A stretch of DNA of 64,000 nucleotides from a virus: positions 1 through 64,000 of IMG/VR virus record IMGVR_UViG_3300028029_000002; one strand, given 5' to 3'. This document shows, piece after piece, positions 46,758-61,621 of the stretch. Made by a program: the position numbers and the translations under genes. Within the stretch, counting starts at the first letter, position 1; every line of letters starts with the position of its first letter. The notes below the pieces were generated by a model that was not told the DNA's origin, did not search any database, and was given only the letters and a program-made list of their open reading frames with translations.

Positions 46758-47123
46758 ATGACAATTAAGAAATTTGAAGACTGGGATTTCACGCTGGCTG
46801 TACCGAGCAATTATGCGACCATATATGCCGCTGAACGCGATAATCGCACCGCTCCATCACCGGAATACGAGAGTAAGATATTCCGAGAAGATGAAGTGGA
46901 CGACATTATCAGAACCGCTATCCAAGCGGCACTGAAAAATGTCAAACGAAACAAAAGAGGGAACCCTTCGTTCCCAAAAGAGGCCACATACGGCGGGATC
47001 ACCGTAGAGTGGAAAAAGAAACACTGGCAGTTAAGAGCATCGGCTTTATACAACTCCCACAGAGGAGTGATGAAAGCCACTCTAACAGTGTTCGTGCCAG
47101 GCGTAACAAACTTGCGACGATAA
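46758..47123 (+). CDS. paralog family A member 1 (121 aa)
   Basis: Shares the P.PEY....I...E.D.I...A and LRASALY blocks with 47135..47686. Confidence 0.6.
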   Translation: MTIKKFEDWDFTLAVPSNYATIYAAERDNRTAPSPEYESKIFREDEVDDIIRTAIQAALKNVKRNKRGNPSFPKEATYGGITVEWKKKHWQLRASALYNSHRGVMKATLTVFVPGVTNLRR

Positions 47124-47134
47124 AGGAACTACTC

Positions 47135-47686
47135 ATGACGCTAAAACAAATCAGCTTGAAAAATTTATCTCTATATTTCATTCCCATCATGCCAAGTGAA
47201 ATATGGACAGTCGAAATTGCACGCGCTATCAACCAGAACGAGGTCAATGCGACCACACACGCCGTTAACCTAGGCGTACATGTTACAATCCCGATGCCGG
47301 AATACGACCAGCCAATTCTGGATCGTGACAAAGTGGACGCCATCGTCACAACTGCGGCCTACGACGCATTAGATAACGTAGAGATTAACGAACGCCATCA
47401 ACCCGTCGTAAAAGAGGGATGGTATGGCGATGTGTACATCGAGAAACATCGGCACTATCTACGTGCATCCGCGCTATACGAAACGCATGAAAGCATTAGG
47501 AAAGTAACGCTCTCTCTCAACATAGCAGTACAAAGCCGCCCGCTCCGAGAATCCGACGTATCGCCCGAAGAATGGGAACAAGTACAGAAAGCTCGCGCAA
47601 AATACCGCGAAGAGCAAGAGAGGATAAACACTCGCTTTCAACAACGCGAGCGCGAAAGACTCTTAGAAAAATTCGGAGGAAATTAA
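47135..47686 (+). CDS. paralog family A member 2 (183 aa; start refined)
   Basis: IPMPEYDQPILDRDKVDAIV and HYLRASALYETH. The C-terminal tail EEWEQVQKARAKYREEQ...LLEKFG parallels member 3. Confidence 0.6.
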   Translation: MTLKQISLKNLSLYFIPIMPSEIWTVEIARAINQNEVNATTHAVNLGVHVTIPMPEYDQPILDRDKVDAIVTTAAYDALDNVEINERHQPVVKEGWYGDVYIEKHRHYLRASALYETHESIRKVTLSLNIAVQSRPLRESDVSPEEWEQVQKARAKYREEQERINTRFQQRERERLLEKFGGN

Positions 47687-47687
47687 G

Positions 47688-47918
47688 ATGAAGACAAATA
47701 CTTTCATCTGTCCCACATGCGGGAAACTGAAAAGCTCAGGCGCGTGGAATACTCCACACTGCCAATGTGGGGCGGAGATGGTCTCGCTCGGAGCGAGAGA
47801 AGAAGCGGCGGCATCCACGCAAATCAAGGGTGACGCCAAGCGGTTGAAATGGTTTCGCGCCGGGTGCAAATATCGGCGCGAGAACGGTCGTCGTAAGTGG
47901 CGACCAGTATTCAAGTAA
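47688..47918 (+). CDS. zinc-ribbon protein (76 aa)
   Basis: RBS GGAGG; CPTCG...CQCG. Confidence 0.6.
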   Translation: MKTNTFICPTCGKLKSSGAWNTPHCQCGAEMVSLGAREEAAASTQIKGDAKRLKWFRAGCKYRRENGRRKWRPVFK

Positions 47919-47934
47919 GGAGGAGGCCAACGCA

Positions 47935-48504
47935 ATGAAACCATACGTTGATCTTGAAAACGAAACCGTCTACATAGTAGACAAAAGAGCGTTCAACTAC
48001 TGCCACCGCGCTTATCCCACCAACCTCGACACCATCCGCGAAGTCAAACGCGCACGCCATTTGGGGATCAATGCAACAATTCCAGAGCCAGTCTACCACA
48101 GCCCAATCCTAGGGTCACGCGCCCAGGCAGAAAAGGCCGTGATAGACACGATGGATAAGCTGTTGGGCAAAATGGAGATCCGCTTAGATAAAGAGGACTA
48201 CCCATACATAGCCAATATTCATACGGGCGAGATCGATCAGTGCCACGTATGGCACAGCAGAGGAGATGACGAAGGAACATTCGCCGTACAAGCCGACTTC
48301 GCTGAAGACGGACGTGTGTATACACAAACATGTCGTATTGACTTAGGCATCTACGGACGGGACATCAAGGAAACTGATGTCCCACCAGAAACCTGGCAAG
48401 CAATTCAGGCGAAGCGTCAACAAGAAACCGCCGACTACGAGGAAACACGGCGGCGGATCAAGCAGGCGGAATACGAATACTTGCTAGAGAAGTATGGGAA
48501 ATAA
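47935..48504 (+). CDS. paralog family A member 3 (189 aa)
   Basis: RBS AAGGAGGAGG; IPEPVYHSPILGSRAQAEKAVI and ETWQAIQAKRQQE...LLEKYG. Confidence 0.65.
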   Translation: MKPYVDLENETVYIVDKRAFNYCHRAYPTNLDTIREVKRARHLGINATIPEPVYHSPILGSRAQAEKAVIDTMDKLLGKMEIRLDKEDYPYIANIHTGEIDQCHVWHSRGDDEGTFAVQADFAEDGRVYTQTCRIDLGIYGRDIKETDVPPETWQAIQAKRQQETADYEETRRRIKQAEYEYLLEKYGK

Positions 48505-48515
48505 GGAGAACAATA

Positions 48516-48785
48516 ATGTTGATTATCAATTACTCGAAACCCATTACGGAAAATCATGTCCATCAGATATGCAACACTCTGAACAAGGATGAAACATACC
48601 CCACGATCTTCAATGCCCCCCGTGCGGTAACAGAAAAGCCGTTGCTGTATTCGGGTGATGTGATTGTTCTACCTGAAAGTTCCATAACTGCAAAACGGAT
48701 TATGGACAACTTAACAAACGCCCTCTACGCACTTCCGCCAGTTTTCCAAATCGTGAACGGAAAGCTGACGCAACTAAACGGGTAA
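48516..48785 (+). CDS. small protein, tandem paralog B1 (89 aa)
   Basis: RBS AAGGAG; N-terminus MLIINYSKPIT. Confidence 0.65.
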   Translation: MLIINYSKPITENHVHQICNTLNKDETYPTIFNAPRAVTEKPLLYSGDVIVLPESSITAKRIMDNLTNALYALPPVFQIVNGKLTQLNG

Positions 48786-48789
48786 AACC

Positions 48790-49116
48790 ATGATCATCAT
48801 CCTCAATACGTCCCACAATCTGTCAAATTACACACTACAACAAATCAATGCCGTCCACCCCACCAATTGCCTCATCACCGAAATCATCGAACCAGTCCCG
48901 TATCAGAAGCTGATTCCTCAAGTCCGCGCCCTCGTGGACAAAGTAATCGAGGAACACGGAGTCGTAGGTTGCCCAGAGGATATTGATTGTCTGATCCTGG
49001 CGGGTATCCCGGATTTTGATGCAGTGTTAGCCCGAATGTTACCGTGGGCTAATATCCTGCGTATTCACCACGGAGCTTTGTTGGAAACAATCCATCCGCG
49101 AGAGATTAAGGAGTAA
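48790..49116 (+). CDS. small protein, tandem paralog B2 (108 aa)
   Basis: N-terminus MIIILNTSHNLS. Confidence 0.6.
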   Translation: MIIILNTSHNLSNYTLQQINAVHPTNCLITEIIEPVPYQKLIPQVRALVDKVIEEHGVVGCPEDIDCLILAGIPDFDAVLARMLPWANILRIHHGALLETIHPREIKE

Positions 49117-49117
49117 G

Positions 49118-49423
49118 ATGTCCACTCTAGTTATTAACTTTTCGAGAACGTCTTTGTCACCCTCTGCCATCAAAACCGCAGAACAGGTGATCAAAGATAA
49201 AGTTGTCGAGTTATTCGTAATCGTCCGCAATAAGACCATCAAGGAGATGGCGGACGAATTCGAGAAGAATCTTGGCAATGCGATCATCTTGCCAGAAAAC
49301 CCAGTGCTTGCCGCACTCCTGTTGGTCGAGTTAAGCATTGGACAATCTGACGCTTTCGCGCCACTACATCCGCCTGTGCTTGAGTTAGACTCACGCGGGA
49401 ACCCAGTGGGGTATTTCGAGTAA
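49118..49423 (+). CDS. small protein, tandem paralog B3 (101 aa)
   Basis: RBS AAGGAG; N-terminus MSTLVINFSRTSLS; ...IILPENPVLAALLLVEL. Confidence 0.65.
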   Translation: MSTLVINFSRTSLSPSAIKTAEQVIKDKVVELFVIVRNKTIKEMADEFEKNLGNAIILPENPVLAALLLVELSIGQSDAFAPLHPPVLELDSRGNPVGYFE

Positions 49424-51864: not shown

Positions 51865-52530
51865 ATGTTTTATAAATTCCCCCGCACACCACATCTGAGA
51901 TGGCTAAGCAGTTCACCAATCAAGGATGATCGCCTTTTAAGCGACGCACAGAGAAAAGACATCCTCAGCAGCCCACTAATCATCGAAGAGAAAATTGACG
52001 GAGCCAATCTCGGATTCTCCCTATCCGAGGATGGGAAAATTCTAGCTCAGAAACGGGGGGCGTATATAGACTCTGTTGGACAGTTCGCGGAACTCGACAG
52101 ATGGCTGAGAACACACGAAGATCATCTATTCGATGCCATCTCAACCAATTTGATTCTGTTCGGTGAATGGTGCGCTATAAAACACAGTCTGTACTATACA
52201 AAATTGCCAGACTTGTGGATCATGTTCGACGTATACGACATCAACGAAGAAAAATTCTATAACGCCGAACGAAGAAACACCCTCGCTAGAAACGCCGGGG
52301 TGAGCACTGTTCATCGCATAGCAACAAGGCGGTTCACAGAACACGAATTATTAGATTTGCTAGGCACAGATAGTACCTACAAAAAAGGAGCTATCGAGGG
52401 TCTAGTGATACGCTCCGAGAATGAAAGGTGGCTGGAAAAACGCGCAAAATTAGTCCGACCTGAATTCACTCGAATCTCTACCCACTGGACACGAAAACGA
52501 TGGGTGAGAAATACAATACAAAGGAGGTAA
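51865..52530 (+). CDS. ATP-dependent RNA (or DNA) ligase-like nucleotidyltransferase (221 aa)
   Basis: N-terminal FPRTPHL and motif I EEKIDGANLG (KxDG), then GEWC. This matches the pattern of the small RNA_ligase family. Confidence 0.6.
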   Translation: MFYKFPRTPHLRWLSSSPIKDDRLLSDAQRKDILSSPLIIEEKIDGANLGFSLSEDGKILAQKRGAYIDSVGQFAELDRWLRTHEDHLFDAISTNLILFGEWCAIKHSLYYTKLPDLWIMFDVYDINEEKFYNAERRNTLARNAGVSTVHRIATRRFTEHELLDLLGTDSTYKKGAIEGLVIRSENERWLEKRAKLVRPEFTRISTHWTRKRWVRNTIQRR

Positions 52531-60130: not shown

Positions 60131-60877
60131 ATGAACAAACTGATAGCGTTCGACATCGAAACGGCGCACGAAGCAGGATATAAAAATTGGAACGAGTCGC
60201 CGGGCATTACATGTATTAGCGCATCACTTTTCTCTGCTGGTCAACACACTGTGCTTACCGCGCATAGCAATTATCAGCCCGTGATGACACAGAAAGACAT
60301 CCATCACTTCGTCGACAGTCTACATGACAGGTACAGGGATGGATATGATGTGGTAGCAATCAACATGACTGGATTCGACTCCCGTGTTCTGTTCTTAGAA
60401 TCAGACAGAGAACATCGAAGAAAAATTCAGGAGTTTACACTGTTCGGCTACGATCCATACTGGACTGTGTTTTGTCAACGCGGGTATGGCCCAGGTCTGC
60501 AAGCCATGGCGGACGGAATGGGCGTAGAAGGAAAACTCGACGGAATGAACGGGCTTGAAGCTATCACTGCATGGCAAGAGAATCGTGAGCGACAACAGCT
60601 TGTACTGCACTATGTGGAACAAGACGCAAGAGCTACATTAGACGTATTCAGAGCAATACGAAAATCTGGCGGGAGCATCTACTGGACGAGCAAACGAGGA
60701 AACCAAATGGGCTGCCACGCTGGTAGAAACGTGATTGATTCACTGGGTTATCCAAAACCCAACACGTCATGGATGACGAACCCGCGCACGCGAGAAAGCA
60801 CAATTGGATGGATGTTGGAGGAATCCAACGAATTCTCGGAATTACTTACGCAAGAACTGGAGAAAACAAATGGCTAA
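60131..60877 (+). CDS. DEDD-family 3'-5' exonuclease-like protein (248 aa)
   Basis: Exo I motif IAFDIET; a later HYVEQDARATLDVF resembles Exo III. RBS GAAGGAG. Confidence 0.55.
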   Translation: MNKLIAFDIETAHEAGYKNWNESPGITCISASLFSAGQHTVLTAHSNYQPVMTQKDIHHFVDSLHDRYRDGYDVVAINMTGFDSRVLFLESDREHRRKIQEFTLFGYDPYWTVFCQRGYGPGLQAMADGMGVEGKLDGMNGLEAITAWQENRERQQLVLHYVEQDARATLDVFRAIRKSGGSIYWTSKRGNQMGCHAGRNVIDSLGYPKPNTSWMTNPRTRESTIGWMLEESNEFSELLTQELEKTNG

Positions 60878-61034
60878 AATCACAGATGAATACGAAGAAC
60901 TCACCTTATACGAAAAACAACGTATTGACAAAATCATGAAATTCTACGAGTGCAATTTACGAGCCGCGTTATACATTAACGCTCTCGAAAAATACATCGG
61001 ACTCGGAAAAGATGAAGATATTCCGCTGGAATGA
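60870..61034 (+). CDS. small hypothetical protein (54 aa; start refined)
   Basis: GGAG-8 nt-ATG. Confidence 0.45.
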   Translation: MAKITDEYEELTLYEKQRIDKIMKFYECNLRAALYINALEKYIGLGKDEDIPLE

Positions 61035-61621
61035 TTAAACGGAATCAGCTACCAGATATATGCAACAATGTCGAATCCGCCATCAATACACTTGGCTGTA
61101 AGGGCCGTATTGATAGCGGAACACTCTCTGTAGACGAGAACGAGTTAGTATTGCATTACATCCCAGCCCCACAGATACGCTTCTCAACAGTGCAATCTGC
61201 CTGTGGGAAGCTGGGGCTTCAAGCTGTTGACAACAACGGTATCATAGAAATAAGGGAAGGATACATGAAAACAATTATCACCAACGCTTTCTCGCTAAAC
61301 ATGCTCGACCGAAAGCGGGGCCAAACAAAATTCGTGTTCACGCCAATCTCTCTGCGCGAAGCGGTTATTATTGCTAGGCGCACAAACAATTTAACGGTTG
61401 GGATTGGACACGAGAATACAGCCGCTATCGTTGCGGAACTGCTTAATCGTAAAGCTGATACTAAAGCCTGGCAAGCGATTGCGAAGACGCGACCAAATGT
61501 CAGCGCAAATGACAACCAGTTACTCGTGGCTCAATACACCGGGCCGCGATTACAAGAAGGAGCCAAACAACTACCAGAAGGAGCCGTAATTGAATTCTGG
61601 CACATCGTGGAGGAAAAATAA
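61031..61621 (+). CDS. acrIII-1: AcrIII-1 / DUF1874-like viral ring nuclease with a 78-aa N-terminal extension (or internal start at 61265)
   Basis: The C-terminal 118 aa (MKTIITNAFSLNML...GIGHENTAAIVAELL...LLVAQYTGPRLQEGA...IEFWHI) match the blocks I recall from SIRV1 gp29: NAFSINML, SIGHDSTIQLINSL, LYVVQISQRLEEG, QFFEI. Confidence 0.65.
   Translation: MIKRNQLPDICNNVESAINTLGCKGRIDSGTLSVDENELVLHYIPAPQIRFSTVQSACGKLGLQAVDNNGIIEIREGYMKTIITNAFSLNMLDRKRGQTKFVFTPISLREAVIIARRTNNLTVGIGHENTAAIVAELLNRKADTKAWQAIAKTRPNVSANDNQLLVAQYTGPRLQEGAKQLPEGAVIEFWHIVEEK

Follow-up and report, generated by a model that had tools for sequence, protein, structure and literature searches.

What are the three small genes that lie end to end at positions 48516-49423 of an uncultured virus genome, and what might they do for the phage that carries them? 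The source record, IMGVR_UViG_3300028029_000002, is an 80,642-bp IMG/VR virus with direct terminal repeats (DTR) and an estimated completeness of 100%; the window analysed here is its stretch from position 1 to 64,000 (64,000 nucleotides). An initial annotation had described three adjacent ORFs of similar size, called them clearly related and minimal, and suggested a weak resemblance to the CRISPR-associated protein Csx15. Their adjacency and sizes are as it had them:

48516-48785, + strand: B1, a tail-less Csx15-like ORF of 89 aa
48790-49116, + strand: B2, a tail-less Csx15-like ORF of 108 aa
49118-49423, + strand: B3, a tail-less Csx15-like ORF of 101 aa

The three co-directional genes form a tight operon, with gaps of 4 nt (B1 stop to B2) and 1 nt (B2 stop to B3), and sit in a co-directional small-gene arm of the 80.6-kb phage. 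AAGGAG Shine-Dalgarno sites precede B1 (8 nt upstream of its start codon) and B3, and B2 looks translationally coupled; all three reading frames are intact, tightly packed and served by good ribosome sites. The calculated pI values are neutral to acidic (6.7 for B1, 5.4 for B2, and 4.9 for B3). The neighbouring genes are all orphans. In sequencing runs, a second study of epibiont metagenomes contains the same phage, at low depth and almost unchanged, which leaves no variation for judging selection, and no RNA run was listed as containing it.

How the three proteins are related depends on the means of comparison. Directly compared, they share 13-29% identity, BLASTP found no significant pair, and in a shuffle test solely B1-B3 stood out (local z 4.1; 5 of 1000 shuffles), with B1-B2 and B2-B3 at background. 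By profiles, in contrast, they belong together: leave-one-out HMMs each time recovered the left-out protein as the best non-training ORF (E 1.5e-6 for B1, 3.1e-3 for B2, and 0.02 for B3), the next ORF following at E 0.2-0.6. Moreover, of 600 phage ORFs (at least 40 aa, six frames), exactly B1, B2 and B3 contain N-[FYT]-S directly behind three hydrophobic residues. The claim that they are clearly related goes further than direct comparison bears out; the relatedness appears via a common family, Csx15. A tree of the trio and Csx15 was saturated (end branches of 10) and did not reject a grouping of the three (p-AU 0.84), a result that does not prove duplication within the phage.

The link to Csx15 was established by several profile comparisons. 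Run with hmmsearch against 1.84 billion representative proteins, the trio profile gave a single small match outside the trio, P0005 (E 7.4e-4), which spans profile positions 1-85 against residues 1-103 and is a bona fide Csx15 by NF040560 (E 2.5e-28; 98.8 bits, cut-off 35). A second match, P0004, covering a 27-residue stretch of a 3108-aa protein, was discounted as spurious. Against 118 Csx15 sequences, hhalign aligned the trio over 80 columns (96.3% probability, E 1.8e-9) and B1 over 74 columns (91.5% probability, E 8.7e-7), while B2 aligned by its N-terminal 52 residues only (84.7% probability, E 6.6e-6); B3 scored 23.0 (12.8% probability, p 0.002), above all 60 shuffles and all 27 control proteins. 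Among the 30 small proteins of the arm, B1, B2 and B3 ranked 1-3 with scores of 40.2, 36.6, and 23.0, and none of the controls, comprising the 27 other small proteins and 180 shuffles (shuffled mean 12, sd 2.2, maximum 20), approached the real scores. A home-built Csx15 HMM, run over the 600 phage ORFs, placed B1 at rank 1 (E 2.4e-5), B2 at rank 2 (E 0.0091) and B3, the weakest of the trio by sequence, at rank 5 (E 0.93), and no other phage ORF matched this model. Most of the Csx15 sequence signal falls in the N-terminal 25-50 residues. B2 shares 20-31% identity with Csx15 sequences (alignment A5), and in 12 viral loci the trio profile picked Csx15 ORFs only. The suggested resemblance is borne out by the P0005 match and the trio hhalign result: all three proteins belong, though highly diverged, to the Csx15 family of Rossmannoid nucleotide sensors akin to CARF and SAVED domains.

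Curated and pairwise searches were mostly silent. NF040560 matched B1 with E 0.09 and 13 bits (residues 2-59 against profile positions 1-56), below its 35-bit cut-off, and listed neither B2 nor B3 at E <= 10; a six-frame search of the phage with this model also gave nothing at E <= 10. At the same threshold, Pfam was silent for all three proteins and no Csx16 or Csx20 model was among the NCBIfam scan matches. PHROGs gave nothing significant, tblastn against 50,697 GenBank phages and IMG/VR pattern scans gave no match, and 5.8 billion proteins searched by word index yielded self matches only, both for B3 by itself and for the aligned trio. A PADLOC scan matched B2 residues 29-79 weakly to CARF1--CARF_HEPN (E 0.024). 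Matches in a profile search of PDB sequences were at chance level, to reverse transcriptases. Since no orthologues were found anywhere searched, conservation cannot confirm which residues matter.

The silence of BLASTP between the pairs and of Pfam and PHROGs, together with the sub-threshold NF040560 score, is what one would see if the Csx15 likeness were chance and these were unrelated small alpha/beta proteins that happen to begin with a short hydrophobic-N-x-S stretch. This is very improbable, as the database-wide profile match to a true Csx15 covers the full length, 27 control proteins and 180 shuffles never came near the real scores, three adjacent ORFs take ranks 1, 2, and 5 among 600, and a B3 model made free of any alignment matches Csx15 clusters.

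That model, from the ESM Atlas (pLDDT 0.81, pTM 0.77; MSA-free), resembles a cluster of "putative CRISPR-associated protein Csx15" (TM 0.73) and a Chloroflexota cluster of 126 aa (TM 0.75). For B2, an AlphaFold2 model (pLDDT 71, pTM 0.59), built with the Csx15 alignment and hence not independent of Csx15, has the five-strand Rossmannoid order b1-a1-b2-a2-b3-a3-b4-b5. In the ESM Atlas, the clusters nearest to B2 by features are viral, with PF27247 (MJ1673), and those nearest by structure are CRISPR-associated and SAVED clusters (TM 0.62-0.63, from a low-confidence Atlas model). The B2 model had no Foldseek match at E <= 0.001 in the PDB and BFVD, and 9TEU and 9TET (Csx15) and 9YLU, 9YLV, and 9YLX (CbCash) were absent from the fold-search matches, whose library reached 8 April 2026 and may not include those entries. 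An AlphaFold2 model of B3 from a three-sequence alignment was poor (pLDDT 50) and led Foldseek to generic Rossmann designs only. Together, the B2 and B3 models predict a Rossmannoid core, a five-stranded sheet flanked by helices. By the initial annotation, its proposal would fall if HMM or structure searches showed no Rossmann-like CARF-type fold; the topology of the B2 model and the match of the B3 Atlas model to Csx15 did not refute it. With 89-108 aa, each of B1-B3 is one domain, not the fused pair of CARF/Csx15-like subdomains that marks SAVED.

What such proteins can do follows from how Csx15 works. Only in 2026 was Csx15 shown to bind and cleave cyclic oligoadenylates of type III CRISPR through a head-to-tail filament. 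It is the head surface that touches the cyclic tetra-adenylate ring, and in the HaCsx15 tetramer crystal the head holds the ligand by itself, its residues H8 and F106 still contacting adenines; the H8A mutant retains ligand-induced multimerisation (bioRxiv 10.64898/2026.10.26.761840). The tail residues R118, R122, and R125 are required for filament assembly or catalysis, R118A or R125A alone abolishing activity; an active site is made whole by arginines from the tail of the next dimer, which also drive the growth of filaments, and mixing complementary inactive mutants restores activity (same source). The head catalytic His is H8 in HaCsx15 and in CsCsx15, which that preprint also covers, and H13 in CliCsx15. 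A central His corresponds to H82 in PfCsx15 and H90 in CliCsx15, in which H90A nearly abolishes activity, and PfCsx15, which is naturally non-enzymatic, acts as a cA4 sponge whose binding depends mainly on the head His; the CliCsx15 and PfCsx15 structures are PDB 9TEU and 9TET (bioRxiv 10.64898/2026.01.21.700848).

In the alignment, B1, B2 and B3 all keep the N-terminal head motif N-x-S-(H/K/R), including the invariant Asn and adjoining Ser of the head loop, and the catalytic position holds His in one of the three (H9 in B2; K8 in B1, R10 in B3). Both motifs pointed out by the initial annotation have a place in Csx15, the hydrophobic strand with (N)FS being its beta1 "NFSHP" head loop and the later LP-x-x-x-x-x-A its "VVLPxxxxxAA" beta3-alpha3 segment, carried by B3 as ILPENPVLAALLLVEL. 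The head motif of B1 is N5-Y-S7-K8-P9-I-T11, and this protein keeps VLP and PP. B2, the most Csx15-like by residues, has N6, S8, H9, and an R-M remnant of GRMG, together with R91/H93 at the positions of Csx15 R97/R99 and a shortened helix alpha3. B3 (N7-F-S9-R10) has an insertion of 4-5 residues before PP and is the only one with a counterpart, Y99/F100, of the adenine-contacting Csx15 aromatic (F106 in HaCsx15). The central histidine of ELHGRMG is missing from all three (T in B1, S in B3, the stretch deleted in B2), and so is the C-terminal arginine helix, the tail (R118/R122/R125 in HaCsx15). The word "minimal" was apt because all three proteins end before this helix.

Because these catalytic and tail residues are missing, canonical ring-nuclease activity is unlikely on the evidence of the alignment. 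Another reading would make B1-B3 active ring nucleases, a divergent AcrIII-3, in a mixed assembly to which B2 contributes the head His and in which other basic residues (candidates are R104/K107 in B2, R93 in B3, and K83 in B1) replace the tail arginines. B2 does keep H9, with R91/H93 at the R97/R99 positions, viral Csx15 has been proposed to be a ring nuclease, and the regained activity of mixed HaCsx15 mutants means that composite sites from different subunits are possible. Nevertheless, we judge this improbable: the whole R118/R122/R125 helix is gone in all three proteins, when R118A or R125A alone kills activity, the central His (the H90 whose mutation nearly abolishes CliCsx15 activity) is lost, and the head His, too, is absent from B1 and B3.

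As the tail arginines of Csx15 complete the active site and drive filaments, the tail-less B1-B3 would be "head-only" units. Our best reading, held tentatively, is that they are tail-less Csx15 members acting as head-only decoys (sponges) for cA4 and other cyclic oligonucleotides. They would most likely bind cA4 or related cyclic oligonucleotides of type III CRISPR or CBASS without efficient cleavage and without Csx15-type filaments, and would keep the signal from host effectors alongside an AcrIII-1-like gene of the same arm. Where Csx15 has its catalytic His, B1 has Lys and B3 has Arg, which would fit binding without catalysis, while B2, with its head His kept, may retain some activity or act in a mixed oligomer with B1 and B3.

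Context that counts for the decoy reading includes the operon layout, the AcrIII-1-like gene and tail loss in other viral copies. The AcrIII-1-like gene, which the initial annotation had also placed in this arm, is weakly seen: positions 61277-61561 match PF08960 (AcrIII-1 family) with E 7.1e-4, below the cut-off, and for this gene Pfam was silent at E <= 0.01 and PDB phmmer gave no match. Among IMG/VR viral Csx15 examples, 10 of 12 (L002-L010 and L012) are single and have the Csx15 C-terminal region, nine of these ten being stand-alone and Csx15-sized. The other two (L011 and L013) are, like B1-B3, without the tail helix; both have the head His, and neither has relatives in IMG/VR. No tandem array was found in the 12 loci. 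Counting against the decoy reading, a neutral to acidic pI is unusual for binders of a polyanionic ligand, the adenine-stacking aromatic has its counterpart in B3 only, and cA4 sequestration by PfCsx15 goes with a tail-arginine stacking that is absent here, so binding may be weak.

Extreme divergence (13-29% mutual identity, saturated tree branches), the loss of most function-conserved Csx15 residues, the lack of orthologues in collections of 5.8 billion and 1.84 billion proteins, and the orphan neighbours might instead be explained if the Csx15 fold had been re-used outside cyclic-oligonucleotide signalling (for another small ligand or host takeover), or if these were decaying copies with little function. 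We consider this unlikely, though it deserves weight. What all three proteins retain is precisely the head loop that contacts the ligand, its catalytic position occupied by His or a basic residue; the frames are intact and tightly packed, with good ribosome sites, and the AcrIII-1-like gene lies in the same arm.

A further possibility starts from the dependence of Csx15, Cash, and SAVED effectors on head-to-tail filaments in which the ligand is sandwiched. Here B1-B3 would be chain terminators (dominant-negative caps): a ligand-bound head-only unit would dock on the tail face of a host Csx15, Cash, or SAVED effector, stop polymerisation, and block activation. Having a head and no tail would suit B1-B3 to this role, and three diverged copies could suit different host partners. 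We give it a slim chance. It is a purely inferential idea, blocking a host Csx15 ring nuclease would raise cA4 and harm the phage, and cA4 in CbCash touches the bound dimer only, so that the geometry may not permit capping. Equally slim is the chance that B1-B3 form a mixed "split-SAVED-like" assembly, with asymmetric pockets for cA3/cA4/cA6 and CBASS trinucleotides and/or with capping of host Csx15/Cash/SAVED filaments.

The novelty here lies in a complete, DTR-bounded phage with three tandem, very diverged Csx15 copies that have shed the tail half of a composite site and kept its head loop. If B1-B3 bind cyclic oligoadenylates, they would stand for a minimal decoy of cyclic nucleotides, head-only and descended from a host regulator, would reveal which half of Csx15 is enough to capture the ligand, and, beside an AcrIII-1-like gene, would bring the kinds of anti-type-III-CRISPR protein to three. 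Should capping prove true, the phage would be halting signalling filaments by chain termination, and no such anti-defence mechanism has yet been described. Pfam, PHROGs, BLAST, and curated cut-offs all miss this family, and phage decoys of a similar kind are therefore probably going unnoticed.

Compared with known systems, B1-B3 share the proposed action of the phage sponges Acb2, Tad1, and Tad2, small proteins that sequester immune second messengers; the folds of these sponges are unrelated, and neither sequence nor structure comparisons matched B1-B3 to them. CARF proteins (Csm6, Card1, Can2) differ in having an extra alpha-beta unit and both motifs on one face, and SAVED (SAVED-CHAT 8TL0, Cap4, Cap5, and the viral SAVED AcrIII-2 9R8S) is a fused pair of such domains where B1-B3 are single. 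With Csx15 (NF040560) they have in common a small stand-alone form, the core order b1-a1-b2-a2-b3-a3-b4-b5, the M-hhh-N-[FY]-S-x-P-h-T head loop, the hhVLP-xxxxx-AA beta3/alpha3 segment, and the PP-x-V start of beta4. They are, however, about 20-35 residues shorter, without the R118/R122/R125 helix and the ELHGRMGYF His, and are phage-encoded and three in tandem, whereas Csx15 is single and at or near a type III CRISPR locus. Viral Csx15 (vCsx15, "AcrIII-3") was proposed in October 2026 from a Lokiarchaeota virus Skoll protein and about 20 metagenomic viral sequences, which were reported as rare, single, and mostly in prophage regions, with a ring-nuclease role proposed. As Csx15 homologues in a virus genome, B1-B3 would fall under this term, both being virus-encoded Csx15-type proteins presumed to interfere with cyclic-oligoadenylate signalling, but the reported viral proteins are single and have the C-terminal region, and B1-B3 are tandem and tail-less. 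While PfCsx15 has tail residues R116, R120, and R123 and stacks head-to-tail on cA4, in a manner not open to B1-B3, it sequesters rather than cleaves its ligand and is the closest functional analogy for B1-B3.

The phage that carries the three adjacent small open reading frames (ORFs) B1, B2 and B3 comes from an epibiont metagenome and is represented in IMG/VR by a record of 80,642 bp with direct terminal repeats and a completeness estimate of 100%, of which the window covers bases 1-64,000. The same phage was present at low depth in a second metagenome study with essentially no differences, apart from a lone C>T at position 49236 of the window (depth 2; B3 Thr40Ile), which may be a sequencing error. 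The trio lies within a long array of small plus-strand genes (the arm) extending from about 43 kb on, and the initial annotation had described its three ORFs exactly in coordinates and sizes:

48516-48785, plus strand: B1, ORF of 89 aa with an AAGGAG ribosome site
48790-49116, plus strand: B2, ORF of 108 aa, placed for coupled translation
49118-49423, plus strand: B3, ORF of 101 aa with an AAGGAG ribosome site

Gaps of 4 nt (B1 to B2) and 1 nt (B2 to B3) separate the genes, no terminator-like sites were found on the plus strand from about 45.4 kb to the end of the trio, and the placement is that of an operon. Among the 600 phage ORFs of at least 40 aa, only these three carry an N-terminal pattern of three hydrophobic residues followed by N-[FYT]-S. 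They had been called clearly related, which direct comparison did not bear out: BLASTP gave nothing for any pair, and in a shuffle test only B1 and B3 rose above background together (z 4.1, 5/1000 shuffles), with B1/B2 and B2/B3 at background.

Family identity emerged from profile methods. For the three proteins, a Pfam scan gave no match at E <= 10, PHROGs nothing significant, GenBank phages and IMG/VR nothing, and word-indexed searching across 5.8 billion proteins self matches alone; faint signals linked B1 residues 2-59 to positions 1-56 of NCBIfam NF040560 (Csx15; E 0.09) and B2 to a PADLOC CARF model (E 0.024). An exhaustive HMMER search with the trio profile against 1.84 billion representative proteins returned one small non-self match, P0005 (127 aa, E 7.4e-4), in an alignment that starts at residue 1 and covers 85 profile positions; the other non-self match, confined to a short part of a protein of 3108 aa, was discounted. 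By the NF040560 model, P0005 is unambiguously a Csx15 (E 2.5e-28, 98.8 bits vs a cut-off of 35), with 709 relatives, several annotated as Csx15 and many from Chloroflexota. This Csx15, the closest to the trio, derives from a JGI metagenome contig of 3675 bp and has a long branch in the family tree, and its head His is replaced by Arg (N-F-T-R-P), as in B3.

With an HMM made, like the alignment A4, from 118-120 P0005 relatives, the three proteins took ranks 1 (B1, E 2.4e-5), 2 (B2, E 0.0091) and 5 (B3, E 0.93) among the 600 phage ORFs. The trio aligned to A4 in hhalign with 96.3% probability (E 1.8e-9, 80 columns), and the single proteins with 91.5% (B1), 84.7% (B2) and 12.8% (B3). As controls, the trio occupied ranks 1-3 among 30 small arm proteins (next protein, 1.1% probability), and its real scores of 40.2, 36.6 and 23.0 compared with 12 +/- 2.2 (maximum 20) for sixty shuffles per protein. 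With leave-one-out HMMs, each trained on Csx15 and two trio members, the top-scoring non-training ORF was in every case the protein left out (E 1.5e-6, 3.1e-3 and 0.02; next ORF 0.2-0.6), and in reverse the trio profile selected Csx15 ORFs alone in 12 IMG/VR loci. The P0005 match, hhalign, the leave-one-out HMMs and the controls vindicate the initial guess of Csx15 as to family: B1-B3 are Csx15 family members by homology and by fold, and a chance resemblance is unlikely.

The MSA-free ESM Atlas model of B3 is confident (pLDDT 0.81, pTM 0.77), with a "putative CRISPR-associated protein Csx15" cluster (TM 0.73) and a Chloroflexota 126-aa cluster (TM 0.75) as neighbours; that of B2, also MSA-free, is weak (pLDDT 0.57), with CRISPR-associated PF27247 and SAVED clusters among its neighbours. 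AlphaFold2 performed poorly on B3 from three sequences only (pLDDT 50), and its B2 model (pLDDT 71; order b1-a1-b2-a2-b3-a3-b4-b5) depends on the Csx15 alignment and so lends no independent support. The predicted structures are consistent with a Csx15/SAVED/CARF-type Rossmannoid fold, though not decisive alone.

The Csx15 family alignment has four conserved elements: a head loop (M-I-L-L-N-F-S-H-P-L-T), beta3/alpha3 (I-L-V-V-L-P ... A-A), a central motif (A-E-L-H-G-R-M-G-Y-F-P-P) and a C-terminal helix, the tail, with three conserved arginines. The cA4 adenines are contacted by the head His H8 and the aromatic F106, and R118/R122/R125 from the tail of the next dimer complete a composite active site and make filaments grow head to tail; in the H8A mutant catalysis is lost and ligand-induced assembly retained, whereas R118A abolishes both (bioRxiv 10.64898/2026.10.26.761840). 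The central His is also required (H90 in CliCsx15; bioRxiv 10.64898/2026.01.21.700848). Compared with Csx15, all three phage proteins retain the invariant Asn and adjoining Ser, and the H8 position holds His in B2, Lys in B1 and Arg in B3. The beta3 and beta4 signatures are present throughout, degenerate in B2 (LILAG for VVLP, no PP), which has R91 and H93 for R97 and R99; an aromatic aligned with F106 occurs in B3 only (Y99/F100). The central His is absent from all three, and each protein ends after beta5 and lacks the arginine helix altogether. With the head loop retained and the tail helix and central His lost, B1-B3 are "head-only" Csx15 cores.

Because loss of the tail and central motif is derived and common to B1-B3, the sequences suggest one truncated ancestor, then duplication. 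A tree constrained to a trio clade was not rejected (p-AU 0.84) and even outperformed the free search, in a dataset that is saturated and where long-branch effects are possible. Each of the 12 viral loci has a single Csx15 copy, and the C-terminal region is present in 10; two divergent copies are:

L011:1767-2120: Csx15 of 117 aa without the arginine helix and ELHGRMG His, head His kept
L013:2995-3351: Csx15 of 118 aa without the arginine helix and ELHGRMG His, head His kept

These copies lie in mobile-element settings, with a Bro-N and an actin-like protein among the neighbours, and no IMG/VR relatives of either copy were found. Judging from these sequences, Csx15 without the tail may be a form that recurs in viruses.

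Several neighbouring genes deserve mention. Directly upstream of the trio is a second tandem paralog set (46758-48504, plus strand), no member of which matched Pfam: the 47009-47686 and 47935-48504 proteins are clearly related (BLASTP E 1e-13, 26% identity, 164 aa), the 46758-47123 protein is a possible third paralog (E 0.007), and a zinc-ribbon-like small ORF (47688-47918) lies between. Downstream of the trio, at a distance of 2.4 kb, is an RNA ligase (PF09414, E 2.9e-30; 51865-52530, plus strand). RNA ligases of phages can mend tRNAs cut by host defence nucleases. Cash, a cA4-activated Csx15-Schlafen effector, cuts tRNAs (PMC13462974), and a thematic link of the ligase to such cutting is speculative. 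The initial annotation had also placed an AcrIII-1-like gene in the same arm. The phage has a single, weak PF08960 (STIV_B116-like / AcrIII-1) match (E 7.1e-4, 15.9 bits, below the cut-off of 26), at 61277-61561 within ORF 61031-61621 and on the same strand as the trio (plus); scanning against Pfam (E <= 0.01) and PDB phmmer gave no match for the ORF. Just upstream of this ORF lies an RNase H superfamily protein (PF13482, E 5.3e-5; 60131-60877, plus strand).

The most likely putative role of B1-B3 is cyclic-oligonucleotide sequestration, which we infer because in the crystal of the HaCsx15 tetramer the ligand is bound through the head surface alone (bioRxiv 10.64898/2026.10.26.761840) and PfCsx15 is a natural non-enzymatic cA4 sponge (bioRxiv 10.64898/2026.01.21.700848); the AcrIII-1-like match counts as supporting context. 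B1-B3 would sequester cA4 or related cyclic oligonucleotides, would form no Csx15-type filaments and would cleave little or not at all, and Lys in B1 and Arg in B3 at the catalytic position would fit phosphate binding without catalysis. A re-used or decaying Csx15 fold is possible, if unlikely; a mixed-subunit ring nuclease and caps that terminate host signalling filaments are both improbable. Against sequestration, the proteins are acidic to neutral, and no orthologues that could show constraint were found in the collections searched. Sequestration is also disfavoured by comparison with PfCsx15, as the tail arginines that aid its cA4 sequestration are absent from B1-B3. The Csx15 family and its viral copies were known already: about 20 viral sequences, rare and mostly from prophage regions, were reported under the proposed name AcrIII-3 (bioRxiv 10.64898/2026.10.26.761840), which no second paper in the literature searched uses. 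New here is a complete phage genome with Csx15 derivatives that are tandem, tail-less and extremely diverged, and that routine annotation misses.
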